NCBI GenBank assembly: GCA_020536535.1
Contig: JAHLWZ010000290.1
Span: 3,171-56,899, forward strand
Length of the DNA stretch: 53,729 bases
DNA from: Pelomyxa schiedti
Lineage: Eukaryota > Protista > Evosea
Direction: 5' to 3'
Program-made: the position numbers and the translations under genes
Shown: positions 3,180 through 53,729 of the stretch, piece after piece
How positions within the stretch are numbered: the stretch's first letter is position 1
Layout of the letters: the number at the start of each line of letters is the position of its first letter
Notes under the pieces: model-generated
The model's database searches: none
The model's input: the letters and a program-made list of their open reading frames with translations, nothing else
What the model was told of the DNA's origin: nothing

Positions 3180-6100
3180 AGTTATCATTTTGATTTAGAG
3201 ACAGGAAGTCGTTACTGAAAAAAGCTAAGGCAGTAACTTCGTGAGTGTGTCTACGTATAATTCGCAACAGAGCTTTTTTGATTACATCCCATATACATAT
3301 GGCCTGATCTTCACCACCACTTGCAAGAATCCTTCCTGAGTCCAAAGTTAAAGGTGGACTGGAGTTTTGATAATGGACAGACCATCTGGTGAGAATTTAC
3401 AAGCAAGTAGCCCATCTTTGTGTGCTGTTAAATTAGCCTGGTTCTCACCAGAACGAGTGTTCCAAATCTTAAAGAAATTTAGAATTATCATGGACTGAAA
3501 ATAGTACCTTCACTGATGCGTCTTTGGATCCAGTAGCCACCAATTTACTTTTGGGAGAAAAGTCGATGGTGCTTATCCAGCCAGTATGCCCGGATAGTGA
3601 TCCGACTTCTTCTCCTGCACGAACCAGATTAGTATGTTCAGGCATTGTTATTGGGGTACACCAAACCATTTTCCAATGACCAAACTTTTGCTGTACGATC
3701 AACACTTCCTGTGACAGCATATCTATGATGGGTGTGCGTAAGGGAATTAATCCAAAAGAAAAGAAACCTTCCGTCGTGGCTTATCGCACAGGCAAATATA
3801 GGTAGTGTGTGTCCCTCAAGTGACATGGCTTCCTCTTTTGACTGTTTAAACCAATCAATGGAAAGGTATGGTCTGAAGGGTTATTACCTTAACTTCCCAG
3901 ACTTTTGAAGTGTTATCACTTGAAGAAGTTAACAACATTGAGCCATTGGGTGACAGAGCAACGGCGTTTATCTTTAAAAGTTATAACCAAACTACATGTA
4001 AATTGTTAGATACCCTCTTAGGATGTGAGAAAGTAGCCAGTTCACGGCCTTGCTCATCAAAAATTTTTGCTTGCCTATCCCAGGAACCTGATGCCACCAG
4101 ATGTGCCGATGGAGAGTATGATATTCCTTTCACCATTGCTGTGTGCTCTGATGTAGAGCCCTCTGACCCACCAGATAATGTATCAGCTAGAGAATAGAGT
4201 CTATTAGACTTGTCAGTACAGAGGAAATAGCAAGTGGCCAGGTGGTACCTTATAGACATATCTGCAGAACCGGTGACAAATAAGTCACCTTTCGGTGAAA
4301 ATGCTACCGTGTTGATAAAATGGGAGTGCCCTTCCAGAGTTGCCACTTCTTCACCTGTGTTGGTGTTCCAGATCTTCGCTATCTTATCAAATGAGCCGGT
4401 GAGCAAGTAGTTTTGATCACTGGAAATATCACAGCAACTCACACTTTTTATTGGTCAGCAAAATAGAGGGAGCAGTACAGGAAAACCTTTGTGTGTGTCC
4501 TGTCATAGTTTGTGCTGGAGCAGACCTGGCAATATCCCATTTTATTATTGATCTGTCAGTGGATACAGAGAACAGATATTTACTTCCAAAGAAAGCCAAG
4601 TCCTGTTAAAAATTTTAGTGCATGGTATACGTGGTTGTTAGTTTACTTTGGCGTATTTATTGTGTCCCTTTAAATCGACAGCAGGCTTAGAAGAATTTGA
4701 TGTCCAAGTGCCATTGTTAACTGTACAGTGGAGCAGTCGGACATTTTTATCATTAGATGTGGTTGCTAACATGCTGTACAATAGATTAGAAGGATCTTTC
4801 TATAATGGAACAAGTACCTTCCAGATTCGTGGAATTTTATGGAAGTTACTGACGAGGTATGGGGTTTCATAGTGATCAAAGGAGAAAGGGACTTGGCAGG
4901 AGGAAGGGGAGAACTAAATACAGCGATACTTCCATCTTCATAACCAACACCCATAACCCAAGTTCCTGATGCACAAAATGCAGTACAACACGTGGCTTCT
5001 TGGATCTCCGGACTGTGCGGCAGTTAAATTCACGGACAGGACAAGTATGATTAGTACCAGGTGAGTGTTCCAATAACTGAGGATGTTGATATTTGCCAGA
5101 TCAGAGCGGAGCCATATTTATAAGCAACAAGTAGATACTTTGATGACATAAAGCAGCATTGGTTTGCACTTCCAGCTTGTATACCAAATGCCCCAGGATC
5201 AAGATTACCAAGTTCGGTGCATGTACTAGTTTTCCATATCTTTTTATAATTGTAACTTTTTTGGTGAAAAAAGAAGAAAGACCTTGGTAATGCCATTTGT
5301 CTTATAGGTGGAAGCTATAAGTAGTCCATCTGGGTCAAACTGGCAATTTAAAACCTATTTGAAGAAGTTGCAAGTCTACTCCACACAAAGAAGTTTACCT
5401 CACTGGGACCAGCCATAACTCCTCGGTGCTTACTATGTCCTATCAAACGTTTGTTTTCCCAAACAAAGTAGGGAGAATGTTGTAAGGTCAGTAATGAATT
5501 GCCGGCTGCAGAAACAATGGAGTTATCAGCACATGCTGCTGCTTGTTGTATCACAGTGGCTGGGTGATCTGTAAGAGCCGTGATATTGAGCATAACAAAT
5601 TTCCTGTAGCCTGTAAAAATACACAGGTACTCAAATGAGATGGTACTTGAAAGCTTGAAGTTTTTCGGTCAAGAATTCATTTGGAATCATTGTAAAATCT
5701 TCCACCAAACTCGCGGCCATCCCAAGAGAACATTTAGCGGAAACAAATTGAAGGTCACCCAGAACCATTTCAAGTTCAGACCATGACTCTGAACAAATGT
5801 TTAGGCTATCTAGGATGAAATGGGGAAAAAAAAAATACTTACGTGCTTGAATCAGATGATATGGTAACTCTGAAAAAGCATGCGGGTTGATAGCATTCCA
5901 TTTACCATCGGACTGAGCTTGGGTCTTGAAAAATTGAGCAAGCTGCCCATGTGTCCTGATGGCGGAATTACCTCCGAGGTATCTTGTTTGAACTGTCCCA
6001 TATTAGCTACTGGAGTAGTGTTATAAAAGAATTACCCGCTTTAGCAAGCTGCTGGTGAAAGAAATCAACTCGACCCTCATTGTTATTGCCCACTGGCCGA

Positions 6101-14172: not shown

Positions 14173-17100
14173 TCAGTCGCTAGCATATCCCCCATCATCG
14201 CTGCTCTCGCCCCCATCACCTCCCCCAGTAAACGGCCCAGTCTCCTCCGTGCCGGGCTCAGCCTCCGGCTCTGGCTCGGGCTCCTCCACCTTGGGTGTCT
14301 TTGGCTTGGTGGTGGGTATGACGAGCCTAGGGGGAGGCGGCGGCGGGGCCGGCTCGTGCTCCCTGGGGGCCAGCGGGGGTGGCGCCCGCAGGGTCCCGGG
14401 GGTGCTCCGCAGCGTGCCCCCGGAGGCCGCGGTGGACACAGCGGCGACGGTGGCGGTCACCGCCGCGGTGTCGTTGATGCTAAGGGCGGTGTTCTGCCCC
14501 TGCAGGTGCACCGGCATGGGCGGGAACGGCAGAATTTCCATGGGCGTAGGGCAGCTGCGCCAGTGGCGGGGCTTCCCGGTGTGCCAGAATCCTGTTCCGT
14601 GCGTGATAGGTTAGAGCTCTTGGGGGTTGAATTTGGGTTTTTAGGGTTTTGGCCACTTACCAACTTCTTGAGGCGAGTTTCGCTGAAGGGCTCGGTGGAT
14701 GGATTCTAGTACCATGGCTAGTCTTTCTTTAGACTTTCCTTGGAGTGCCGCCAGCTCTCTCTGGGCATCTTCACTGTAGTTCATTACGCCTACTGTTTTG
14801 TTGTGGATAAAGGCGCTGCTCAATGCCTGTCATTTTGGTTGGTTGAATTGGATGAACGCAAGAGAAATACAGTGAATCCATTGGTCTTGGTTAAGTTTTT
14901 GTCCATATCAAGGAACTGCAACCGACGATTGTGTGTAAGCATGTTAGCAACAGCAGCAGCACCGGAGTCACCCATCTGAAAAGATTGAGGGGATTGTACG
15001 GAAATATTACCAAGTACATTATTGTTGGATATATCAATGGATGTAAGGGAGACAGTATCATTCCAAGAATCAAAGAAGGGTATCAATACACGTTTGCCTG
15101 GATAATGGTGAGTTTAGGAAAATTCCAATGGAGGGTAAAAACCAAAGCAGGAGCCAAGTTTCAAGGTTGTAATAGTAGGGCATGACTGAAGGAGGCCTGA
15201 AAGGGCCTGGATAATGGGTCCTTGTGGTCCACTCCGGCTGAGTGTGTCACTCAGGTTCAGAGTATGAAGCATGTTAAGTTTACCTACTGTCTAGAAGATT
15301 ATGAGAAAACATAAACTGAAACGTGGTACAACCTGGACCATCTCTATCCAGGTAGCATCTTTTGTTTTAATACCGGTTAAATCTAAAGAAGCTATCTTAG
15401 ATGCGGCTTGCACAAGGTCTTTGTGAATCTGCATCTGTGCAAATGTAAAAATCTAGTTTGGTACCGTTGTGTGCGCACCTTCAGCTCAGTATTCTCGGAG
15501 AAATTGACTGTGCAATTAGACGCTTTGGGATTACGGGAGAGAGCAGTGAATAGCGATTTGGCTCCAGCGTCATACGAGATACCACAGCCAGAAAGGTTCA
15601 AGTTTGTGATAGAAGGAGAAACCTAATGGAGGTCAGTGATTCCACAGTGTAACAGAGGCAGGACAGTGTTACCTCCAAGAAAGCAGAGAGTACAAAAGTT
15701 GAGTTACCATCTACCAATCTATTATTTGAGATATCCTGGAACAATAATAAGTGAAAAATAGGACTCACTAACAACACACAAGTTCTGCAATTTCGGTCAT
15801 GTGCTTTAGTGATTGAAGGACATTGAGCGACAAAGTGCATCCAGAAAGTAACAAATGTCTAACACTGGTGAGTAATTCTGAATTCTTACGAGCCATATCA
15901 AACCTTATTTTGGCATAGACCTTCAGAGCAAAGAACCACCTCTCCAATTCCAGTGACCCAGGAAGTTCAAACTTGTTGTTTGATAAATTAAGAACCTGCA
16001 GAGACAACGACACGGATGGATTTTCAATAAAGGCCGAGAAAATTAACTGTATTGCTCGGGGCTGAAGGGAGTCAGAAAATACGGATGAAGGAGGGAACAA
16101 TGCAACTTGCATGGAACAATTGGATAGGTCCAATTCAATCAATGGATGTCGATAGCTGTGAAATACTTTGGCCAATTCCAGGGCCGCTTTGGGGGAAATG
16201 TTGTTTCCAGACAAATCCAAAATTTGTACTGCATGGAGTGAGTTCTGTCAATTGTTAAATGGTTACAATCAGAAGGGGCTAACTTTTTTAAGTGCCTCTG
16301 CAACTTCAATAATTTGTTGTTCTGAAGCTCCTATGTCAGAAAGTACAACTTTGGTCAACGTGACATTCGTTTGTAGTACATAGGCAACCATAGACATTAC
16401 TGCTGGTTGTGGAGTATCAGTGCAGATCACACTGTAGGTAGTCTGTGAATTACAGAAATAATACTGGAACGGGATAAAAACCTTCTGAAGTGAGAATCAT
16501 ATCGCAGAGAGGCCACAAGGGCTCTCAGTTCCAGAAGAGGTGCTTTGTCAGCATCATCTTCAATTACAGGGATTTGAGTTATATCCAACTCGGTAACATT
16601 GTTATCTATCAGGTCACGCAAATAGAAAACAACTTCACTGTTGTATTGTTTCAGATAAGAAAGAACAACGTATCATAAAGAATACCGATTTGCGAGCACT
16701 CCATAAAAAGAACATTGTCCATAGTAATTATTGATAAACTTGGTTGCAGGATCAGCTTCATAAGGATCCACTGCAACAGCCCTAAGGAAGGATCAGAGAT
16801 TCACAGTAGATAAGTTACCATACCCACTATCTTCCAGTTGGAAGTATGTGGCAGGGAATCCACTTGCAATTATTGCAAAGGACTCCCTGATGCCCTTAAT
16901 CATGGCACCAGCAGTGGAACATGAGACACTGAATTTATTCGACTTGGAGGGCGATTTATAGGAAATTGTCACCTTGTATCAATTAGGTCATAAAAAAAAA
17001 AGGTTACAAATTTGAAACAAACTTGGTCGTTGCTTCGATTAAGGGACTCCAAATCATACAAGTGGAATTCCCTGACCTGAATGTGCCAAGTTTATTTTAA

Positions 17101-21698: not shown

Positions 21699-21706
21699 GC
21701 CACCCA

Positions 21707-22339
21707 ATGGCTGCCAAATCAACGATGACCAATGGCAATCCCAGCTACAAACAGCCACAGCCACAGCCACAGTCACAGTCACAGTCACAGTCACAGTCAC
21801 AGTCACAGGCCGAGCCTCCACTCTGCGGAGCCCAATTCCAAGAAAGGCTGGCCCTGCTGCTCGACGCCCTCGGGGGCACGGGCGACCCGCCGCCCGCTGC
21901 TGGCGTGACGGTCGAGCTGATGAGCCGCCCAGAGGCAGGCCACCCCCCCGCGGAGCCCGGGTCATCGCCCAGCACCTACCCCACAGTCGCGGCGGCCTTG
22001 GTCAGCGGGCCCCCTCGCCCCTGTCGCTTCATGGCTCGCGTCATCGCTCAGTACCTGGGGCCCCGCCGCCGGCTTGCTGAGGATCAGGGGCCGCGCCCCG
22101 CAATGCTGCACCTCATCGAGTGCCGCGAGAGTCGCCTGGGCCCGCGTGCTACCGTGGAGGAGAACCAGGAGGCACTGAGGGAGTACATTGTGGGAGGCGG
22201 TGGGGCCGTTTACGTGGAGGGGAGGGAGGAGGCCTGCTGGGAGGAGGTCGTGGAGATGGTTAGGGGGCTTGTACAGGACTGCGACGGCGCCGGCGTTCTT
22301 GTGCTACTCCACCCAACAAGTGACATCATCTTGGCCTGA
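21707..22339 (+). CDS. GC-rich (~68%) intronless ORF of 210 aa containing an in-frame (CAGCCA)3(CAGTCA)6 microsatellite that encodes QP/QS repeats; no recognisable domain.
   Basis: MAAKSTMTNGNPSYKQPQPQPQSQSQSQSQSQSQAEPPLCGAQFQERLALLLDALGG...VLVLLHPTSDIILA stop. Third codon positions are strongly biased to G/C, which indicates the sense frame. The antisense ORFs at 21651..21965 and 21745..21975 are judged to be GC artefacts. Confidence 0.4.
   Translation: MAAKSTMTNGNPSYKQPQPQPQSQSQSQSQSQSQAEPPLCGAQFQERLALLLDALGGTGDPPPAAGVTVELMSRPEAGHPPAEPGSSPSTYPTVAAALVSGPPRPCRFMARVIAQYLGPRRRLAEDQGPRPAMLHLIECRESRLGPRATVEENQEALREYIVGGGGAVYVEGREEACWEEVVEMVRGLVQDCDGAGVLVLLHPTSDIILA
21752..21808. repeat. Hexanucleotide microsatellite (CACAGY)n.
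   Basis: cagccacagccacagccacagtcacagtcacagtcacagtcacagtcacagtcacag, read directly from the sequence. Confidence 0.95.
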
Positions 22340-23077: not shown

Positions 23078-25560
23078 ATGGGAAATAATCAGTCTCTGAA
23101 ATTGATGTTTCTCACCAAACCATATCTTGAAAAAGGGAGTGTTCTTGCCCCTCAACTTCTGGAAAGCAATGTCCAGATGAAGCAAACTATTTTCACACTA
23201 CGGCCTAGAACAGATGATGTTGATATGGTAACTGCACGACGTAGTAAGATATTGACACCTAGATTTCAATCTTATCCATTTATTTTTGGTCTGCATCACC
23301 TATGTAAATTACCAGCCCACACATTATATCTAGGAAAAGTACTACATGTTGTGGGCCATGTTGAATGTGGGTGCGCGGAAGGTACTGATCCTCGATTTAA
23401 GGAACCTTACCAACTCTGTCCTGACACCCATGGCACATTATACTTTTCGGACTACTCTAACAAACGACTTTGTGTGCTGTTCCCAGACAGTATTTTTTTG
23501 GCAACCCTGATGCTGCCTAACAGCAATTAGGAAATTTAAACATAATAAAAACAAATCTTGGACGTATATATGGCATGGCCCTTTCGAAAAATGCTTTAGC
23601 ATATAGTGAGCGTCATCAAATAAAAATCCTGGAGCTAGGTTGTAGACCAGAAATTGTAGCTCATTAACTTGCCTTAGATAAACCTGATCTGGACCCACTT
23701 ACCATAGGTGATAAAATAGGGTCCACAGATGGGCCTTTGATTGATGCACTGTTCACACGGCCCTCTGCATTAACATTCGACTACAACGGGAATTTATGGG
23801 TTGCTCAAAGTCACACAAAGTCTGTGCGAGTTATTGTGTTTTCAGCAGGTATGCATGTCCCAGTAAACATTGCGTCACTACAGCAATTACCCAGAGAGTG
23901 TTTTTACTGTTCTCGTTTTTTCTGAGCCACCTACTGCTCTATGCTGTGACAAACACAATAACCTGTACATTGCAGTTGGAAATCGGATTTTGAAAGCCCC
24001 TCTCAATTCTGAGCACACTACATGTTTCATCCTCTAAAATAACATTGCCTCTTCTAAATCAACAAAAGCACCTCCACTTCTGCTGTGTGTTCTTCCACCA
24101 CCTATCAGTTACATATATTCAATGGCCGTTACCGATGAAGATAGGCTTCTTTTTACATGGGGTGACAATATTCTCATGCTTCCTACACTTGGCGGACAGT
24201 GCGGGTCTGAAGGACAAACAGCCCATACAGAGAGTTCAAGAAGAGCCAGTTACTGTGACGTTGTTGATGGCATTTCTACAGATGATATTTGCTCACCTGT
24301 AATTGTTGTTGGTGGAGGAGCCGATTTTCAGGGTGACCCCTATGGTGCACACCCCCTTAATATCAAGCTTCGACGGCCTCGTGGTGTTGCAGTTGGATGC
24401 AGCAGTGGTGAGATATATATTTCTGACAACCACAGGATAATGTGCTTAGTGGAGATGAAGGTATCAGGCTGTTTGTATCTGGTCACCTTCTGAGAGTTCC
24501 TCAGGTATCTGCAAAATCAAAACATTCAGACCTACCTGACGTAATGATCTCCCCTCACTGTGTGTACTCTCATATGTTGAATTTAATAACAAAATGGCTA
24601 GTGAGAAAAGCATTTGAGCAATTGCCTCTGGTGAGGTTGTTTGGCATTACGTCTCCGTGTCGGTTTGCTGAACACATGATGGGCATTCTCGGTTCCTGTG
24701 TTTTCAAGGAGGTGGAAAACTTGTATTTCTTTTGCCAATGCGTGAGAGAGCCACCATTGGATGCACTTGCATTGGTCTTGCAACGATTCATTTTTGACAT
24801 TTTCCCCTGGTTGTTCAAGGTATATCCAAATACTACGTATCCCAGAGATACACTCGTCACCAAGGCGCGCGACTGTTCCAACGATTCACATCGACTCATC
24901 GTACAAGTTTGCCACAACATAATAAGCCAGACAAAATCCGCAACAGATCCGCCGGCCTCGTCAGTGGCAATAGCACACCTTGTTTATGGTTTCATACATC
25001 AAGAAGGACTTGGTGCACAACAAGACTACACCACAGCAGCAAGACACTTCTTGATTTCTGCACAGTTGGGAAATAGCCTGGGTAATTATTATATTGCCAC
25101 ATGCTATTTTCATGGACATGGTGTGTCACAACAGCTAAGGGAGGGAGTGCGGTACCTACAGCTTGCTGTTCAACAAAATAACCCCATTGCTCAAAGTGAC
25201 CTAGCATATTGTTACCGCACAGGATATGCTGGTGTTGAGCTGAATCTATGTGAAGCTGTGAGATTGTGGACCATATCTGCCGGCCAAAGCTGCCCCATTG
25301 CCCAAAACCAACTTGCATTGTGTTATGAGGAAGGCAAGGGTGTTGATAAGAACATAATGCAAGCAATTACCCTCTATGAAGAGGCAGCTTATTCGTTTCA
25401 ACTCCCCGATGCACAGTTCAACCTCGCTGATTGCTTTCTCAAAGGAGAAAAGCTAGGGATACTTCAGGACATGCCCAGGGCAGTGGCATTGCTTGAACAG
25501 GCCAGAGCACAAGGGCACAAGAAGGCCACAATAAAGCTGAAGAGGCTTGGAGTTGGATGA
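23078..25560 (+). CDS. NHL-repeat plus Sel1-like-repeat protein with an N-terminal MGNNQS (myristoylation consensus); multi-exon.
   Basis: Starts MGNNQSLKLMFLTKPYLEK.... NHL-like units are present (..GTLYFSDYSNKRLCVLFPDS; FDYNGNLWVAQSHTKSVRVIVFSAG; PRGVAVGCSSGEIYISDNHRIMCL). The 3' exon 24442..25560 carries at least 5 Sel1-like repeats (GNSLGNYYIATCYFHGHGVSQQLREGVRYLQLAVQQNNPIAQSDLAYCYRTGYAGVELNLCEAVRLWTISAGQSCPIAQNQLALCYEEGKGVDKNIMQAITLYEEAA...). Confidence 0.6.
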
Positions 25561-25814: not shown

Positions 25815-27918
25815 TCAAGAATATTTCACCCGTAGGATGCACATAGGCCTTTCCTCACGAGGGACCAACATCCAAGCCCTGTCATAAGCCTTGTAGTACT
25901 TGTCTAGGACTGAGTGCTCAATGGCGGGAGTGTGTTTGACAAGCGGGCGATTTAATGTGCATTTTGTTCCGTCACAGCACCTGTAAACATTGCCACACAC
26001 AGTGCAAAAGTTACGTGACATCCAAACAAAAGATACATGTTTCCACTTTTATGTATAAACAAGGTAAAGGCAAGAAAAAAGGATCATAAGGAAGGTACCT
26101 TGGTTTGGTCACAATCTCCTCCAATCTCATTCAAAAAGTGGCTCAAAACTGATCTTGCATTCTTAGACCACGTTACACTGCTGTTCAACAATGCTTGCTA
26201 GTTTTGTGACTCAGTGGGTCGGTGGAACAGATGAGAAAAGCGCACCTTCCAACAGGAACTGGAACGCCCTGCATGGTACCTTTTTTTCGAAAAAGAAGGT
26301 TATTCACCCGATATTGTGGGTGATATGATGGCAAACCAAAATCGGGAAGTCCGTTGAATCCTCCCAAGGGCTTGCACATCAAGAAGCGCCAGCACTCCGG
26401 CAGTTTCGGCTTGATACAGTGCTGCCATTGCTGTGATGGAATCATCGATCCTGATGATCTCGTTACAAAATTGTTCTGAAAATACGGAGTTTTACTCAAT
26501 AGATGCAGAAACCATCTGTCGTGTATCTATGGCCCCACTTGGAGGCACCTTCTCGAATTCCATGACAGGCATGGATGCACGTAGCGCGTCCGTTGAGCCG
26601 ATAATTTCTGAATATTTTGACACTGAGATGGACCCCACAGCTTGATTTGGGAACAACTTCCAGTATCCTGACGTGGTGTGTTAAAAAAGAAAAAAAAACA
26701 AAAATGCAAGAAATTGCAGATACCGTGGATGTGATCGTACTCTGAACTCTGATAGTGCTTCCAGAGGTCACACTCTTTGTTTGGCAGAACTCCACCCAGT
26801 CTCACCATTTCAGCCACCAACTCACTTTGGTCCAAAATAACAGCAAGAATCATTGGAGTGAAAATTCCTTCATAACTACGAAGCTGGAAGCTGCAAGAAG
26901 CATTGGGATTCGCCCCGAGGGTTAAAAACTTCATTGCCAGCTCTCGCTGGTTTCTCAATATTGCCATGAAAAGTGGTGTTTTTTCATTTGCCGTCTCCGA
27001 ATTGAGGAATGCAGAGAAATTTGGATGATTGACGAGAATATCAAGAAGCTCCTTGTTTGTTGCACTCCAGCGCGGGTACTGTGTTGCGTTCACAAAAGCA
27101 CGGCCAAGGCCCTTGTGGAACACCTGACAGAGATACTGCAAAACATCTGGACGAGCTTCCTCACAACCACAGTACACTGCAATTGGCAGTTTGGCGTCAA
27201 GAGCCTCGATGAATTTATTCCCGCCCCACTTTTCATTCACCAGCAGTTGTATGACTTCCAAATTGTTGTTGTGCATGACCATTTCCAGGGGAGAGTCGGG
27301 CTGAGGGGGCGTTTTATTGAATAGCAAGGTAGCCTTAGTTGGAACATCAAAACGAGAAAGTATCATTCCAATGACATCCGGCTGTAGCTTACCAATACAC
27401 AAGTGCATAGCCGTGACCTTTCTGCCATCCACCGAGCACCACAACCCCGGATTTGCACCGAAGGGTTCCAGCAAGAATCTGGCCACTTCCACATGCCCCT
27501 CATACACAGCACAAGCAAATGCAGTCCCTTCATCCCACTGGTTCCAAGTGCACATGGAATCCGCCATCCGGGAGAAAAAATCTCGCCGGCAAGGCCTTTC
27601 GTGCCACGCATCGTGCACTATCTTCAGCTCCTCGAGGTGCCCGAGAACCGCGCATACGAACATGACATTGATTCGCACCAATTTTTTCGCGCCGTGGCCT
27701 GTTGACGTGTCTGGGACTTTGGTCTTGCACTCGAATGCCCCTGGTTCGTGGCCCACGGGTGTCCGAGCAGCCAACTTGGCCAATTTCCCAGGCCGCGCCT
27801 TGGCCGCGGCTGTGAGGAGCTTGTTGCCCTTCACAACCGAAATGAGGCTGGCTCGTTTGGCGGCATAATTTGCAGAGTGTTGTTGATTGTGGGTGTCGGT
27901 TCCCACTGTCTGTCCCAT
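25815..27918 (-). CDS. Ankyrin-repeat protein with an N-terminal MGQTVGT (Gly2 myristoylation consensus) and a C-terminal Cys-rich module; paralog 1 of a tandem pair. Six exons: join(27918..26724,26667..26496,26450..26337,26279..26246,26197..26099,26045..25815), 614 aa.
   Basis: Exon 1 is track ORF 26527..27918 (ANK repeats, for example TPLFMAILRNQRELAMKFLTLGANPNA). The other exons are ...DHIHG|(G)YWKLFPNQAVGSISVSKYSEIIGSTDALRASMPVMEFEKVPPSGAIDTRQMVSASI|(E)IDDSITAMAALYQAETAGVLALLDVQALGRIQRTSRF(W)|YHAGRSSSCWK|QALLNSSVTWSKNARSVLSHFLNEIGGDCDQTK|WKHVSFVWMSRNFCTVCGNVYRCCDGTKCTLNRPLVKHTPAIEHSV...KYS stop. All junctions are GT..AG and all phases close, and paralog 2 has the same exon pattern. Confidence 0.75.
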
Positions 27919-27998
27919 GTTTCTTTTAAAAAAAAAAACGGTCGATCAAACCCGGTGGTTTTCCGAACGGAATACTTTTTTTTTTGGCTATTTTATGC

Positions 27999-30169
27999 TC
28001 ATGACTGATCAGACATAGCATATCTGTCAAAAAACCCAGAAGGTGTCTCAACAACGCCTCCAAACAGTGAAAGAAACTCGGAGATCACTGCGGTCTTTTT
28101 TTCCTGAGGAACTACCAAACTCCAAGCCAGGTCATATGTCTGGTAGTATGTGTGAAGGGCTGGGTACTCAATGGCGGGAGTGTGACTGACACGCGGGCGA
28201 TTTACTGCGCATTTTGTTCCATCACAGCACCGGTAAGCATAGCCACACCCCGTGCAATAGTTCCGCGCCATCCAAACAAAAGATACATGCTTCCACTTGG
28301 GTGTTTTTCGAATGTTAAACACCAGGGAACAGTACTAGAAGGTACCTTGATTTGGTCACAATCTTCAATCTCATTCAAAAAGTGGCTGAAAATAATCCTT
28401 GCATTCTGAGACCACGTCGCACTGCTGTTCAACAATGCTTTCTAAGGTTTTTTTTTTTTGTTTTTGGTTTTTTTTGTGCTTCGCCAAACCGTTGGAAAAC
28501 ATACCTTCCAACATGAATTGGAACGCCCCACATGGTACCTTTTTGAAAAATGATTATGTTTTTGATGTTACAATGAAGGAGCATAAACCAAAATCGGGAA
28601 GTCTGTTGAATCCTCCCAAGGGATTGAACATCAAGAAGCGCAAGTACTCCGGCAATTTCAGCTTGATACAGTGCCGCCATTGCTGTGATGGAATCATCGA
28701 TCCTGGCAGAACAGTTATTAGTGGTTCTCAAAATCTCGGAGTTTTACCCAACAGATGCAGAAACCATCTCTCGTGTGTGTGAAGGCAGTTTCTCGAATTC
28801 CATGACAGGCATGGATGCACGGAGCGCGTCTGTCGAGCCGATAATTTCTGAATATTTTGACACTGAGATGGACCCCACAGCTTGATGTGGGAGCAACTTC
28901 AAGTATTCTGATGGGTTTGTTAAAAAAACATAAAAACGAAAGGAAATTACAGACACCGTGGATGTGATCGTACTCTGAACTCTGATAGTGCCGCCAGAGG
29001 TCAGAATTTTTACTTGGCAGAACTCCACCCAGTCTCGCCATTTCAGCCACCAACTCACTTTGGTCCAAAATAACAGCAAGAATCATTGGAGTGAAAATTC
29101 CCTCATAACTACGAAGCTGGAAGCTGCACGGAGCATTGGGATTTGCCCCGAGGGTTAAAAACTTCATTGCCAGCTCTCGGTGGTTTCTCAATATTGCCAT
29201 GAAAAGCGGGGTTCTTCTGTTTTCAGTCTCCGAATTGAGGGACTCGGTGAAATTTGGGTGATTGACGAGGATATCGAGAAGCTCCTTGTTTGTTGCACTC
29301 CAGCGCGGGTACTGTGTTGCGTTCACAAAAGCGCGGCCAAGGCCCTTGTGGAACACCTGACAGAGATACTGCAAAACGTCTGGACGAGCTTCCTCACAAC
29401 CACAGTACACTGCAATTGGCAGTTTGGCGTCAAGAGCCTCGATGAATTTATTCCCGCCCCACTTTTCATTCACCAGCAGTTGTATGACTTCCAAATTGTT
29501 GATGCACATGGCCATTTTCAGGGGAGAGTTAGCCCCAGCGGACGTTTCACATAGCAATTTAACTCTGGCTGGAATATCGCAAGCAGATAGAATCATGTCA
29601 ATGACATCCGGTTGCAGCCTCCTAATACAGAAATGCAGAGCCGTTAATTTGTTACCTAGCTTGTCACCGAGCACATCGCACTCCAACCGCGGATTTGCGC
29701 GGCACTTTTCCAGCAAGAATCTCGCCACTTCCGCATGCCCCTCATTCACAGCACAAGCAAATGCGGTCCCTTCATACCACTGTCTCCAAGTGCACATGGA
29801 ATCCACCAACAACACAGAAAAAGTAGTTTTGTCCTCCCAACAGACCCTTTCGTGCCAGGCATTGTGCACTATTTTTAGCTCCTCGAGGTGTCCCAGAGCA
29901 GCGCAAACAAACATAAGATTGAGTCGCACCAATTTTTTCGCGCCGTTGCCTTTCGACGTGTCCGGGATATTGTTCTCGATCCGACATGCCTCTATTTCAT
30001 GGCCCACGGGTGTCCGAGCAGCCAACTTGGCCAATTTCTCAGGTTGCGCCTTGGCCGCGGCTGTGAGGAGCTTGTTGCCCTTCACAGCCGAAATGAGGCT
30101 GGCTCGTTTGGCGGCATAATTTGCAGAGTGTTGTTGATTGTGGGTGTCGGTTCCCACTGTCTGTCCCAT
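27999..30169 (-). CDS. Paralog 2 of the N-myristoylation-motif ankyrin / Cys-rich family, a tandem duplicate of 25815-27918; multi-exon. Exon 1 is 30169..28957; the terminal exon ends at 27999.
   Basis: Track ORF 28718..30169 (MGQTVGTDTHNQQHSANYAAKRASLISAVKGNKLLTAAAKAQPEKL...). It is about 85-90% nucleotide identity to paralog 1 across exons, with divergent introns. The terminal exon reads ...WKHVSFVWMARNYCTGCGYAYRCCDGTKCAVNRPRVSHTPAIEYP.... Confidence 0.7.
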
Positions 30170-42182: not shown

Positions 42183-45100
42183 ATGGCCACGAGACCGGTG
42201 ACGTTCTTAGTGAACGGGAAATTGCATTCCGTAGCGAATGCCAACCCTTTGGAATCTTTGCTTACTTATTTGCATGAAGGTATGTTTCTTCTGTATTCGT
42301 TGGGCCTTTTTTTTTTTTCCTAACACCAGTGTTGTATCGTTAACACGTTGCAGCTGGAATAAAGGGAACCAAATTGGGTTGTGGCGAAGGCGGCTGTGGT
42401 GCTTGCACAGTTGTCGTGTCTTTCTTCAACAAATCACTTGGCTCTGTTTGGTAATTGCTCTACCCTTGGCCTTGGTTATATTTATGTGGCTTAGCCATAG
42501 AGCTGTAAACGCTTGTTTAATGCCCCTTTGTGCTGCTGATGGCACTGCTATAACAACTATCGAGGGTCTCAAGTCAACCACTGCATTGCACCCCATTCAG
42601 GTTTTCTTTCTCTGTAATGTACAATGCTTTGACAACCATATAATTTATAGGAACGAATGGTCAAGTCCAACGCTATCCAATGTGGGTTTTGTACTCCAGG
42701 CATTATAATGGCCCTATATGCGTACCTTCTGGAGCACCCAAATGCTACAGAGTCTTCTTTGCAATCTTGTCTAGATGGAAATTTGTGCAGGTGCACCGGG
42801 TACAGACCAATTATCGATGTCGCAAAAAGTGTATGTATACCCTTTTACTCATAACTCTAAAGCACACCAATAGTTCGCTCGGAAAACCTGCCTTGGTACT
42901 TGCACCACAACAGACATTGAGGTCGTTCCCTTTTCTCAGGAATGTACTTTAATGTAATTCAAGACTCTTCCTGTTGCTCCACCATCCATACCAGTGGAGT
43001 TTCTTACAGAAGCGAGGACTCCGCTCTTTGCTTCAACTCCCCAATGCTCGTGGTTTGTTCCACAGACACTCTCAGAGCTTCTTGAACTCAAGGCATTGAA
43101 CAAATTCCTTTTCCTTCCCTCTATCCTCATTTTCCCCAGAGGCTGCACCCTAAAGCCGAAATTGTTGTAGGAAACACGGAAGTAGGGATCTTCAATCATT
43201 TTAAGGGTTCATACCCAGGGCATATCATTTACCCTGCTAACATTCCGGAGCTTCTTTCTGTGAGTGATATACACTGTTTGCTTTGTAACATCTTTGCAGT
43301 TCTCCACCACAGAGGACGGTGCCTTCATTGGGGCCGCTCTCTCTTTGACGGATCTTGAAATCAAATTGGAGAGTCTTATTGCATCAATGGATGTATTTCT
43401 CCAGTTCACTAAAATGCATCTGATTTCTGTAAAGAAAGCAAAGGCCAAAATTTTTGTGGAAATGATACGACAACTTGAACGTTTTGCTGGCCACCAGGTG
43501 CGTAATGTTGCATGTTTGGGTGCAAACTTGGCAACTGCCAGTCCAACTTCTGACATGAATCCCATTCTTCTCGCCTCGGTACAGTTTTGCTTTTTTTGGG
43601 CACACATTTCTCATACCAATTAGGGAGCTGTGGTCCATGTTGCTTCTTCCACTGGAAAAAGAACAGTTAACATCTCGGACTGGTTTATTGGGTACAGAAA
43701 GGTAGCACTTGCTCCCGAAGAAGTCATTGTCAGTATATGTAGGACCCACTCTAATATTTTCTCGCACTCAGCCTCTTTTAGTTGTACCTTTTACAAAGCC
43801 AAATGAATTCGTCAGTGCTTTTAAGCAATCCCGACGGCTTCACGATGATATTGCTGTTGTAACAGCCTGCTTCCGAGTTACCCTGCAAGAAGTAATATCT
43901 ATGGAGAAAAGGATATATTAACGTATTTGAAGGTTCCAAATGAACCAGCCCCCAGTAGTGTAACTGCAACATCAGCACCAATTTTAAGGTGGGATAGTGC
44001 CTCCTTCAATGCTGCAGTGGCGTCTGGATCAGGATTTGTTGCGCAGCCCCCTTCTCAGTCACTGTTTCCCCCGACCAATAAGAAATGGGTAGTGCAATCT
44101 TGCTCCCTAGCCTTTGGCGCTATGGATGCCCGAACTCGCCTGTATTTTATTTTTCCAATTTTCTTTTTTAATTTCTCCTTCAGTGCCTCCAGTACTGGTC
44201 AGTTCCTAACAGGCAAATCTTGGGATTTCTCTATTCTTCCAGGGGTCATACGTGCATTTGCCACAGTAAGTCAATTTATTTCCTGTTGTTTTCTAATGTG
44301 TTAGGATTTTCCAATTGCCGCAAAAGTGCCTGGTGGTATGCCTGAATACCGTCGCACAATGACAGGCAGTTTGTTCTTCAAGGTACATAAAATGTTGCAC
44401 TCCAACCAGAACTCAGTCTCTTTCCAAGTTCTTCATGGACGTTTATGCCAATATCCACGGCTCCACTTCAGTTCCACCCCAGTATCTCTCAGCTGCGAAG
44501 AAATCTTTTGATCGAGCAGTGATGAAAAGTGTTGTTGACTTTGATTGTGCAACCCCCAAGTGGTAGATTCTACTAGCCCGACTCTCCCCTCCACTGATAA
44601 TACTAATAAAGCCCAACTGATGTTGTTGGAACTCCTGTGACCCACATCTGTGCTGATAAACTTGCAACTGGAGAAGGTTTTGACATCTTAATTTCACCAC
44701 AAGTAATTTCCTTGAAGCTGTTTTTGCATCCGATGTTGATGCACCATATCATGCAGTGATGATACAGAGCTCCAAGGCACATGCAAGGATTGTGTACGCA
44801 CTAAGATGATTTGTTGCATGACATGATTTATTTCTACCAGGAGTATTGATGCTACTAAGGCACTTGCAATGGAAGGTGTTCTTCGTGTTTTCACTGCCAA
44901 AGATGTTCCTGGTACAAATGTTTTCCCTGCCACCAAGGATGAAGAAGTCTTTGCCAGCTCCGAGGTTTTATGCGTGGGTAGGCGTTTGACGAACTTTATC
45001 TTCCCTTGGTAACTCTCCTTTTTTTTAGGCTACCCAGTTGGTGTTGTTGTTGCCAGGACCCACGAGATTGCCCGCAATGCAGCTCGGTTGGTTCAAGTGC

Positions 45101-47736
45101 AATATGAAGAGTTACCGGCAGTTTTAACCATCGATGTGCGTTAGAACTAGCAAATAACCCATCTCATTTTTCTAGGATGCAATTAGGACAAATTCCTGGT
45201 TAGCTCCACCAATTGTGTATGAAACAGGTGATATTAACGCGGGCTTCAAGGCATCTGATCACGTCATTGAAGGTCAACCACAAAGTATTTCCATAGAAGT
45301 AACTGTGAGCAGGTGAAATGTCTGTTAATGGACAAGAACACTTCTATATGGAAACCAACGTTGTGGTCGCTACACCTCGTGAAGATGAAATTGAACTCTT
45401 CTGTTCGACCCAAAATACCTCAAAAACCCAGTCCAGTGTTGCAACAGTACTGGGAATTCCTTCGAACGCTGTAACAGTGAAGGTAGTGATGACATTGACT
45501 GTATTTCCTTAATCTCCTTTAGTGCAAACGTGCTGGTGGAGGCTTTGGAGGCAAGGAAACCCGGAATATATTCGTTGCTGTTGCATGTGCCGTTCCTGCG
45601 TACATAATGAAGAAACCAATTAAATTGTGGATGGATCGTGACGTGGATATGTCAATCACTGGCACCCGACACCCTTTCCTGTGCAGGTACAAGGTCGGTT
45701 TTATGAACAGTGGAAAGCTTGTTGCCGCCGATTTTACTCTCTACAGCAATTGTGGTTACTCACTGGATCTTTCTATTCCCGTAATGTCACGGTAGATATC
45801 AAACCGGCAGATACTAAAGCTAATAGTTTTGTTAAGAGCCCTTTTCCATGTCGATAATGCATATTTCTTCGAAAATCTTCGTGCAACAGGACATATGGCC
45901 AAAACAAACAAGCCATCGAATACAGCGTAAATTCTTCTTCCTGTCATCTCTCATTGTAAGAATAATTACCAGTTTCCGTGGATTTGGCGCTCCTCAGGGA
46001 ATGTGTGTAACTGAGCAGATTATGATTAGGATAGCACAGATGCTTGCTAAGCCTGTGAATCCTCTAAGAGTTGGCACCCTCAAGAAGACTTCCTTCCCAC
46101 TAACTGTCACTACAGGAACTTAACTTCTACAAAGAAGGAGAAATGACCCACTATGGAATGCAGGTGAAAAACAATTTCATGGCTCGTGTTTGGGCAGAAC
46201 TTCTAGAAAAGAGCGAATTTAAGAAGAGAGAGTGAGCCTCCCTTTTTGTTTGATTCAAGTTCTAATACAACGAAAAGACATGAAGTGACCGTGTTCAATG
46301 CCCAGCAGCGATACAGGAAGCGTGGTATTGCTTGTATACCCGTTAAATTCGGTCTTGCCTTCACCCAAAGTGCACTGAACCAGGTACACCACACAGTTGA
46401 AACCTCTTTAATATCTTAACTCTAAAAAAGGCTGGCTCACTGGTTCACATCTACGTTGATGGCAGTGTTTTGATCTCTCACGGAGGCTGTGAAATTGGGC
46501 AAGGTCTTCATACAAAGATGGCGCAGGTGTGCTTTGCCTGAAAAATGTATTACTGTCCTTACATACACAGATTTGTTCTACGGCCCTAGGTATTCCACTC
46601 AGCATGGTGCGGGTAGGTGACACGAGCAGTGACAAAGTTCCAAACTCTTCACCCACTGCGGCTTCATCTCAGTCAGGTACTTTAGTTTAATTAACTGTGG
46701 TGTATGTAACACTATGTCACTTCAGATCTGAATGGCATGGCTGTACTGCTTGCCTGCACTGCTTTGAAGGAACGCCTGGAAAAATTCCGAGCGACTCTGC
46801 CCCCCACCCCCGAACCACTACCCTGGGACAAGGTACCAGCTGTAACCTTCTTGTCTTGACTAAATTTCCATTTTCCAGCTGGTGCAAGCAGCGTATGCAG
46901 CCAGGGTGGATCTATGCGCTCATGGATTCTATGAGACATCTGCGGTCAAATTCGATTTTAAGACAGGAAAGGGAAACCCGTTCTCCTACTTCGTTTTCGG
47001 TGCTGCCTGCTCTGAGGTAGAAATAGACACTCTCACAGGTTTGGTTTTGTTAGGTTGCAGCCCTTGAAATGACAGTGTGGTAGGAGATCACACGATCCTA
47101 AGAAGTGACGTAGTAATGGATATTGGGAAGAGTTTGAACCCAAGCATAGATATCGGCCAGGTGACAACACAACAGCCCCTTGTGTAATGGCATTTACTAT
47201 CTATTTAGATTGAGGGCGCATTCATTCAGGGCTCTGGGTGGTCCACTCTGGAAGAACTTGTCAATTTCCCCAATGGGTCATATTACACTCTGGGGCCATC
47301 AACCTACAAGATTCCAGGTACTTGGACACCCATGTATTGTGGACCTTACACTCTCCCAGGAGTTGTTGATGTGCCTTCCGACTTCAGGGTTTACATTTTA
47401 CGTGACGTTGAAAACCCTATGGCCGTTCACTCATCCAAAGGCATAGGGGAGCCCCCGTTGTTCCTAGGCCATTCCGTTTTCTTTGCAATCCAAAACGCAA
47501 TTACCAGTGCAAGGGCCGAAGAAGGAATACAAGGATTTTTCCAGATGTCTCTACCCGCCTCCTGTGAACAGATAAGACTCGCTTGCCGTGATGCCTTCAC
47601 CGATCCCACTCCAAATGGTATCAATCATCCTATTCCCCTTTCTCTCCTCACATACAAAACAGCCGGCATCAAGGGTGAATCCTGGACCACCGTAGAAAGC
47701 AGGCCTACTCCCGACGACCTCCACCAACTTCCCTGA
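42183..47736 (+). CDS. XDH: Xanthine dehydrogenase / aldehyde oxidase family molybdo-flavoenzyme; multi-exon.
   Basis: [55 protein letters not shown] (2Fe-2S ferredoxin) ... [25 protein letters not shown] ... [21 protein letters not shown]...[12 protein letters not shown] ... [30 protein letters not shown] (FAD domain) ... [16 protein letters not shown]...[11 protein letters not shown] ... [13 protein letters not shown] (Mo-pterin domain) ... [25 protein letters not shown]. Domain order matches vertebrate XDH. Confidence 0.9.
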
Positions 47737-53191: not shown

Positions 53192-53729
53192 ATGGGACAA
53201 GCAGTGGGCACCCGTACCGGAAAAAGTAATTACCAGAACAACCAGGACAGCATCATCCCATTCGTGAAGGACAACGAGCTCCTCGCAGCGGCGGCCAAGG
53301 CCCAAGCCATCAAATTGTCCTGGTTGGTCTCTCGGACACCCGTGGGCCATGAGGAGGATGCTTGTTGGGCGCGCTCGTCGGGATTTTCCCTCAACGTGTT
53401 GTTTGTTTGTGCGTCTCTGGGACACCTCGAGGAGCTGATGACTGTGTACAATGCCTGGCACGAAACTCGTTGGTGGGAGGATCGCTTGGCACCTTCCGAG
53501 TGCAAATGGAACCAGTGGGATCCAGGGACCCCTTTGGCTTGTGCAGTGAACGAGGGGCACGTGCAAGTGGCGAGGTTCTTGATGGAAAAGTGTGGCCAAC
53601 GTCCGGAGAGCTGGTGCACTCTGGATGGAAAAAAGGTCACGGCTCTTCATTTGTGTGTTCAAAAGCAGCTGTTGGAGCTCATTGACCCGATTCTACAATC
53701 CGTTGGTGATCTGAAAAGGAGGGTTGATC
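53192..53729 (+). CDS. Third paralog (5' part, truncated by the window end) of the N-myristoylation-motif ankyrin family, in inverted orientation relative to the tandem pair.
   Basis: MGQAVGTRTGKSNYQNNQDSIIPFVKDNELLAAAAKAQAIKLSWLVSRTPVGHEEDACWARSSGFSLNVLFVCASLGHLEELMTVYNAWHETRWWEDRLAPSECKWNQWDPGTPLACAVNEGHVQVARFLMEKCGQRPESWCTLDGKKVTALHLCV... aligns residue by residue with the N-termini of the genes at 27918 and 30169. Confidence 0.7.
   Translation, partial: MGQAVGTRTGKSNYQNNQDSIIPFVKDNELLAAAAKAQAIKLSWLVSRTPVGHEEDACWARSSGFSLNVLFVCASLGHLEELMTVYNAWHETRWWEDRLAPSECKWNQWDPGTPLACAVNEGHVQVARFLMEKCGQRPESWCTLDGKKVTALHLCVQKQLLELIDPILQSVGDLKRRVD

Follow-up and report, generated by a model that had tools for sequence, protein, structure and literature searches.

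Tandem ankyrin-repeat F-box genes of Pelomyxa schiedti: putative N-myristoylated SCF substrate receptors with a candidate half-CHORD zinc knuckle

Two genes, A and B, lie head to tail on the minus strand at positions 25815-30169 of a 53,729-nucleotide stretch of the Pelomyxa schiedti genome (assembly GCA_020536535.1, contig JAHLWZ010000290.1, positions 3,171 to 56,899 of the forward strand), referred to here as the window, and the start of a third copy, C, lies near its end on the opposite strand. The genome of P. schiedti, an anaerobic archamoeba, carries an annotation produced by Augustus, PASA and EVM; the genome paper makes no mention of ubiquitin or ankyrin families (PMC8887013), and our literature search found no paper joining Pelomyxa with F-box and ankyrin. 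The question raised by the locus is what kind of protein such genes encode. A preliminary description, made from the sequence alone, recognised ankyrin (ANK) repeats and an N-myristoylation-type start, noted conserved small exons without stating their identity, took the Cys-rich last exon for an unknown class of zinc finger and proposed a signalling or immune adaptor family. That function is better put as substrate receptor of an SCF (Skp1-Cullin-F-box) ubiquitin ligase: we consider it reasonably probable that A, B and C are Pelomyxa-specific paralogs encoding putative N-myristoylated F-box proteins that would serve as SCF receptors and that carry, behind the F-box, a half-CHORD knuckle.

Explicit splicing confirms the six-exon structure proposed for the pair and leaves the reading frames of both genes open. 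Gene A (NCBI Pelo_3756; 27918-25815, minus strand) has exons at 27918-26724, 26667-26496, 26450-26337, 26279-26246 (34 nt), 26197-26099 and 26045-25815 (including the stop codon) and encodes 614 residues in our model; gene B (NCBI Pelo_3757; 30169-27999, minus strand) has exons at 30169-28957, 28907-28748, 28702-28589, 28538-28505 (34 nt), 28441-28346 and 28295-27999 (including the stop codon) and encodes 637. The 34-nt exon is real, being carried in the spliced models of both complete genes, and the translations contain the peptides YH[AV]GRS[SN]SCWK and WKHVSFVWM[SA]RN[FY]C as previously quoted. The introns are GT..AG in 10/10 cases and measure 45-63 nt (45-57 nt in gene A); across the genome, genes average 7.4 introns, and 98.4% of introns are GT-AG (PMC8887013). 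In each copy the start ATG is the first in-frame start past an upstream stop codon. For exon 2 a donor at GAGAAG/GT was rejected: with it the frame is closed by a stop in exon 3, and in copy B the site is not a GT. The donor used is a conserved GTAAAAC, 41-53 nt downstream, picked from the pattern of third-codon-position substitutions between copies A and B, and it restores the frame in both. Our model of gene B is identical, residue for residue, to NCBI Pelo_3757. Exon 1 of gene A shows 100% identity with NCBI Pelo_3756, annotated as a hypothetical protein, and the two models of this gene agree as far as residue 553.

Exons 3 and 4, the short exons whose identity had been left unstated, encode an F-box. 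In gene A the two exons, with intron 3 between them, occupy 26246-26450 (minus strand) and supply the F-box helices (IDDSITAMAALYQAETAGVLALLDVQALGRIQRTSRFW and YHAGRSSSCWK); the equivalent exons of gene B lie at 28505-28702 (minus strand). The Pfam F-box-like profile matches all five close paralogs, with a best E-value of 8.9e-7, and a family profile built from 33 sequences matches the F-box of beta-TrCP1 at E 1.3e-6, as well as those of FBXO4, FBXW7, KDM2A, GID2, FBXL5 and Skp2, F-boxes whose structures have been solved bound to Skp1. An AlphaFold2 model of residues 452-606 of gene B, computed with the 33-sequence alignment (pLDDT 90.2, pTM 0.81; an earlier run with six sequences gave pLDDT 43.5 and was set aside), predicts an F-box of three helices with a helical linker behind it, and its best structural matches in a Foldseek search are F-box proteins.

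Some features of these exons weigh against a working F-box. Taken alone, the two window proteins stay under the F-box-like cut-off of 24.3 bits, A with 15.4 and B with 19.6-20.8. The Foldseek E-values are weak (>= 1), because only ~35-100 residues are in common. The Pfam alignment begins at profile position 12 of 47, so that the first 11 positions, and with them the canonical N-terminal Leu-Pro, are absent; the sequence upstream of the match reads SITAMAALYQAE and contains no LP. Such features would suit membrane-anchored ankyrin scaffolds with a degenerate F-box that no longer binds Skp1, adaptors without ubiquitin-ligase function. We regard this as unlikely, though deserving of some weight, since no other part of the gene is as constrained as the F-box exons (dN/dS 0.20 between A and B), the peptide GRIQQTSRFWY is nearly invariant among paralogs that are otherwise only 30-45% identical, the family profile matches bona fide Skp1-bound F-boxes (E 1e-6), and the predicted fold is that of an F-box and its linker. 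In beta-TrCP1, the best profile match, the spacing after the LP motif is likewise atypical. The F-box of the Pelomyxa proteins would be expected to dock onto Skp1.

The second part of the answer concerns the Cys-rich tail. Exon 6 of gene A begins with a linker, WKHVSFVW, followed by the pattern C-x2-C-x6-C-x4-C-x8-H (25932-26045, minus strand); the knuckle runs from the Cys codon at 26006-26004 to the His codon at 25934-25932 (minus strand). Its counterpart in gene B, linker included, lies at 28182-28295 (minus strand). Among 18 Pelomyxa sequences the residues W, K, F, W, C and C of the tail are invariant and the H nearly so, and the AlphaFold2 model places the CxxC within a predicted beta-hairpin (pLDDT 80-93). 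A HMMER search with the C-terminal profile, exhaustive over 1.84 billion representative proteins, found 40 proteins. ANK-bearing paralogs of P. schiedti, among them Pelo_4769, make up about twenty of these, and a transcript of a different Pelomyxa species adds one. The remainder are small proteins of 160-335 residues, from P. schiedti itself (Pelo_13236), from Mastigamoeba balamuthi, from the dictyostelids Cavenderia and Acytostelium, from Ceratiomyxa, Clastostelium and Phalansterium, and from metagenomes. All ten of the small proteins scanned pass the Pfam F-box-like cut-off.

These small proteins link the Pelomyxa tail to a known domain. Behind the same 'KWK' linker they carry the pattern C-x2-C-x13-C-x2-H-x~19-CC-x9-C-x4-H, whose eight ligands are invariant or nearly so. 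A profile of this module matches CHORD-II of RAR1 (2xcm_E, E 1.7e-4) over positions 6-71 of its 73, and CHP-1 (CHORD-containing protein 1; 2yrt_A) at E 1.8e-3, and its second half matches BTK motifs. Single small proteins give marginal Pfam scores for BTK (15-25.2 bits, cut-off 24) and CHORD (19.2 bits), and the canonical CHORD spacing, C-x4-C, is found in two relatives of the group from Mastigamoeba. When the Pelomyxa profile for the region behind the F-box, with the F-box itself left out, is aligned to this module, it matches the first 32-34 columns with an hhalign probability of 96.5% (E 9.9e-10). No family member has a CS domain by Pfam, and there is one module after the F-box, not a tandem CHORD pair.

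In CHORD-II of RAR1 the N-lobe zinc ion is held by Cys159, Cys164, Cys178 and His218, corresponding to ligands 1, 2, 3 and 8, and the C-lobe zinc ion by His181, Cys196, Cys197 and Cys213, ligands 4-7 (PMC2935968). The Pelomyxa ANK family retains ligands 1-3, and ligands 4-7 (H, CC and C), which form the C-lobe, BTK-like site, are gone; the BTK motif H-x(n)-CC-x(n)-C (PF00779) is absent from the window proteins. In a MAFFT alignment the near-invariant Pelomyxa His falls on the terminal ligand, for which it is a candidate. In gene B the four proposed ligands are C553, C556, C568 and H577. The full CHORD complement, in which six Cys and two His make up a pair of zinc sites, is present in the small relatives and not in the window proteins. 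The simplest reading is that the C-lobe site was lost by an internal deletion, leaving an N-lobe site (CCCH) that is potentially complete and may still bind zinc. Judged by its sequence, we conclude, the Pelomyxa tail is the surviving N-terminal half of a CHORD domain and not a new kind of zinc finger.

This assignment has a number of points to answer. The hhalign match spans only those first columns, of which 13 are the WK linker. A profile of the Pelomyxa Cys module alone matches nothing in the PDB (best E 3, to an unrelated protein), Pfam gives no hit on the Cys segment, its CHORD profile finds no match in the window proteins, and the connection to CHORD runs through intermediate sequences. 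The equation of the His with ligand 8 is based on the MAFFT alignment only. Divergent Pelomyxa paralogs lack the third Cys of C-x2-C-x6-C-x4-C, an extra residue ('YR.C') that is no CHORD ligand, and a few also lack the fourth, the equivalent of ligand 3, so that zinc binding may not be family-wide. In addition, the NCBI model of Pelo_3756 (590 residues) splices the cluster out: it takes a 152-nt GT..AG segment of exon 6, 26000-25849 (minus strand), as an intron, continues in another frame beyond the stop of our model and loses the conserved Cys residues. As the other introns measure 45-63 nt and the cluster is kept in every paralog, this intron is probably a mis-annotation or a minor isoform.

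The lack of a Pfam hit, and of any PDB sequence match to the Pelomyxa-only profile, would also fit the earlier view that the exon encodes a new zinc-finger class without relation to known domains, and we know of no catalogued finger with the spacing C-x2-C-x6-C-x4-C-x8-H. That view now seems distinctly improbable, given that the segment aligns, without help from the F-box, to the N-terminal half of the amoebozoan CHORD-like module, that it occupies the same position behind the same F-box and WK linker, and that the module of the small proteins matches solved CHORD domains end to end. The preliminary description had named MYND and B-box as well-known domains that the segment might turn out to match. 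Neither gives a Pfam match at E<=1, in the full proteins or in the C-terminal 215 residues; a well-known domain has been reached all the same, in CHORD, by way of intermediate sequences. Two weaker resemblances were discarded. The small bacterial zinc protein 2ida_A, which exon 6 matches weakly by phmmer (E 1.8), is not recovered by the family profile and is superseded by CHORD, and the C2H2 zinc-finger matches of the small-protein profile cover positions 13-37 only, in many weak repeats, and reflect a resemblance of pattern (C-x2-C...H), not homology.

In one further gene model, Mastigamoeba balamuthi m51a1_g1979 (657 residues), an MG-start F-box/CHORD-like region runs on into an entire PSMD13/Rpn9 subunit of the proteasome lid (Pfam PSD13_N, E 2e-42; PCI is also matched). 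It is either a fused gene model or a true fusion, in which an SCF receptor and a proteasome subunit are joined.

At the other end of the protein, direct reading of the sequence confirms that all three copies begin MGQ[TA]VGT. The Gly2 N-myristoylation-type motif MGQTVGT lies at 27898-27918 (minus strand) in gene A, and the same motif at 30149-30169 (minus strand) in gene B and 53192-53212 (plus strand) in copy C. MGQTVGT and MGQAVGT both fit the pattern G-{EDRKHPFYW}-x2-[STAGCN]-{P}, as do the starts of 9/12 Pelomyxa paralogs. The MG start itself is conserved in 10/12 full-length-looking Pelomyxa paralogs and in 16/21 small amoebozoan relatives. The window proteins are therefore probably N-myristoylated, and hence anchored to a membrane. 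Behind this start, exon 1 encodes the ankyrin region, at 26724-27680 (minus strand; residues ~80-398) in gene A and, by correspondence, at ~28957-29930 (minus strand) in gene B. We count ~7-8 degenerate repeats by eye. Their identity as ANK repeats, already proposed, is firm: Ank_2 reaches 48.6 and 57.1 bits (cut-off 27.3), and Ank, Ank_3 and Ank_4 likewise pass their curated Pfam cut-offs.

Put together, these parts suggest how the proteins might work. The lipid on Gly2 would hold the protein at a membrane. The ANK repeats, the most variable part, would come after a conserved N-terminal helix and serve as the target-binding surface, and exon 2 would form a conserved linker between the repeats and the F-box. 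The F-box of exons 3-4 would dock on Skp1, with the usual helical linker ('WK...W') next to it, and the zinc knuckle C-x2-C...C...H would be a structural remnant capping that linker. The source of the knuckle would be a small MG-start protein, conserved across Amoebozoa, in which a single CHORD follows the F-box. P. schiedti retains this protein as Pelo_13236. The ANK-fused family has lost the middle of the CHORD, with ligands 4-7, and what is left, ligands 1-3 and the candidate ligand 8, matches exactly the residues of the N-lobe zinc site of RAR1 CHORD-II.

Comparison with known proteins shows which elements are shared. Like F-box proteins at large (PF12937/PF00646; beta-TrCP1, FBXW7, Skp2, FBXO31), the Pelomyxa proteins combine a predicted three-helix F-box with a helical linker bearing conserved Trp residues. 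They differ in that the F-box stands near the C-terminus, behind the repeat domain and not ahead of it, lacks the Leu-Pro start, falls under the Pfam cut-off in single window proteins, and belongs to a protein that is probably N-myristoylated. Their direct evolutionary relatives are the small amoebozoan proteins, such as Cavenderia fasciculata XP_004350321 ('cyclin-like F-box containing protein'), Acytostelium XP_012750902, Pelo_13236 and Mastigamoeba m51a1_g452, with which they share the F-box, the 'KWK' linker, the beginning of the zinc module (C-x2-C...[YF]R) and the MG start. Whereas the small proteins have no ANK repeats and a complete eight-ligand module, the window genes have gained ~400 residues of ANK repeats and lost ligands 4-7. 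With CHORD domains (PF04968; RAR1, CHP-1/CHORDC1, melusin) the small relatives share six Cys and two His in register from end to end, and the window genes the three Cys, and possibly the His, of the N-lobe site. Known CHORDs, however, are reported in tandem pairs and work together with CS domains, SGT1 and Hsp90 (PMC2935968), whereas here a single CHORD follows an F-box, and the window genes lack the C-lobe together with its Hsp90 nucleotide-contacting loop.

FBXO1 of Toxoplasma and Plasmodium provides a precedent for the probable mode of action of the Pelomyxa family. It too is a Gly2-myristoylated F-box protein with Gly2-dependent membrane targeting, and the G2A mutant of TgFBXO1 loses that targeting (PMC6685633). 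The likeness is one of analogy, since the C-terminal domain of FBXO1 is alveolate-specific and unrelated, ANK repeats and zinc module are lacking, and homology is confined to the F-box.

A combination of ANK target binding with an F-box is also found in the PRANC proteins of poxviruses, Wolbachia and Orientia and in AnkB of Legionella. In these the F-box recruits host Skp1, and AnkB is also lipid-anchored. One may therefore ask whether the Pelomyxa genes were acquired horizontally from an endosymbiont or a giant virus, as with PRANC proteins (known from poxviruses, Wolbachia, Rickettsia and Orientia) or AnkB. The order of domains, ANK N-terminal and F-box C-terminal, does resemble that of PRANC proteins, and the profile search brings up AnkB, though weakly (E 0.059). 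Pelomyxa also harbours prokaryotic endosymbionts (PMC10579272), and this counts on the same side. Each window gene, however, has five spliceosomal introns and a base composition unremarkable for the window, and the unit of F-box, WK linker and CHORD is common to host genes throughout Amoebozoa, P. schiedti included. Moreover, Pfam gives no PRANC hit at E<=1, and a viral fold search returned only generic F-box matches from giant viruses (E>=0.1) and no poxvirus protein. Horizontal acquisition is accordingly extremely improbable: unlike the viral and bacterial effectors, these are intron-bearing host genes of amoebozoan ancestry.

The degree of divergence between copies shows how the family evolves. 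As had been noted, the exons of A and B are much alike and the introns divergent: exons 1-5 are 85-93% identical, introns 52-76% and flanking sequence 40-58%. Exon 6 reaches only 65% over its full length, because the tails of A and B differ. Over the whole coding sequence dN is significantly lower than dS (Fisher p = 1.5e-6). The ratio dN/dS is 0.49 overall, and it varies from the tight constraint on the F-box to none in residues 41-80 (~1.1). Copy C is much older (dS 0.6-0.9, dN/dS 0.41-0.63). The copies are thus under purifying but relaxed selection, in keeping with the earlier view of them as intact, evolving paralogs. Synonymous divergence between A and B is patchy along exon 1, with pS ranging from 0 to 0.58 across 40-codon windows, which suggests gene conversion between the tandem copies.

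This patchiness, the dN/dS near 1 in residues 41-80 and the diverged C-terminal tails could also be read as signs that at least one copy is a decaying duplicate, a pseudogene whose similarity is kept up by gene conversion only. We find this very improbable. Both complete copies have open six-exon frames, all splice sites and all proposed zinc ligands, dN is lower than dS, and the annotation pipeline drew on transcript evidence (PMC8887013).

Copy C (53192-53729, plus strand) is cut off by the end of the window. Its 179 codons, the 5' part of exon 1 only, comprise the MGQAVGT start, the N-terminal helix and the first ANK repeats, and they support its description as a third copy, with 48% amino acid identity to gene B over 203 residues (E 3e-41). 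No further copies were found in the window by tblastn. Copy C is ~90% identical to an internal unit of Pelo_4769, a gene model on a different contig, 2068 residues long, that is an annotated fusion of about four tandem copies. Gene A begins only 80 nt beyond the stop of gene B. The spacer (27919-27998, minus strand), rich in A/T runs, has hardly room for a 3' untranslated region and a promoter, and this very short spacing fits the fusing of tandem copies by annotation pipelines elsewhere, as in Pelo_4769. The ANK-fused family is expanded in Pelomyxa only, with at least 15 gene models, and its description as lineage-specific holds for this fused form.

F-box proteins with ANK repeats are known already, as is the CHORD domain. 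A single CHORD directly behind an F-box, in a protein of myristoylated type (MG start) conserved across Amoebozoa, appears to be undescribed; our literature search found no paper joining an F-box with a CHORD domain in such an architecture. The Pelomyxa derivative, with ANK repeats gained, the C-lobe zinc site lost and at least 15 gene models, likewise appears undescribed. A set of hypothetical proteins thereby becomes a defined family with a testable mechanism, that of a lipid-anchored SCF receptor, and the tail would exemplify the clean halving of a zinc domain along its two metal sites. Two annotation problems are also flagged, the missing Cys cluster of Pelo_3756 and the fusion of about four genes in Pelo_4769.

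SGT1 binds Skp1. CHORD proteins bind SGT1 and Hsp90 (PMC2935968), and the fusion of F-box and CHORD therefore hints at a direct link between SCF and the CHORD/SGT1/Hsp90 system. Variable ANK repeats, gene conversion and the arrangement in tandem arrays mark the expansion in Pelomyxa, which suggests that target recognition evolves rapidly; a tie between this expansion and intracellular symbionts is speculation. The most far-reaching proposal would make the remnant an autonomous single-zinc 'half-CHORD' (CCCH), a new minimal module, have the ancestral fusion of F-box and CHORD couple SCF to SGT1/Hsp90, and have the myristoylated ANK version diversify in Pelomyxa to police membranes, for example those of vacuoles housing methanogen or bacterial endosymbionts. 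As a whole we hold this to be quite unlikely.

The remaining sequence of the window holds other open reading frames (ORFs). An ORF of 372 residues at 24442-25560 (plus strand), with Sel1-like repeats recognised by eye (e.g. CYEEGKGVDKNIMQAITLYEEAA), is convergent to gene A, the two stops lying ~250 nt apart. Exon-sized ORFs resemble, by eye, xanthine dehydrogenase / aldehyde oxidase (42238-47736, plus strand), a WD40-repeat protein (3981-4442, minus strand) and a leucine-rich-repeat protein (15768-16220, minus strand); these are ordinary eukaryotic neighbours with no evident tie to the family. At ~21700-21850 (plus strand) overlapping ORFs in different frames read TVTVTVTVTV and QSQSQSQSQS, which indicates a short tandem, microsatellite-like repeat within or beside a coding region.

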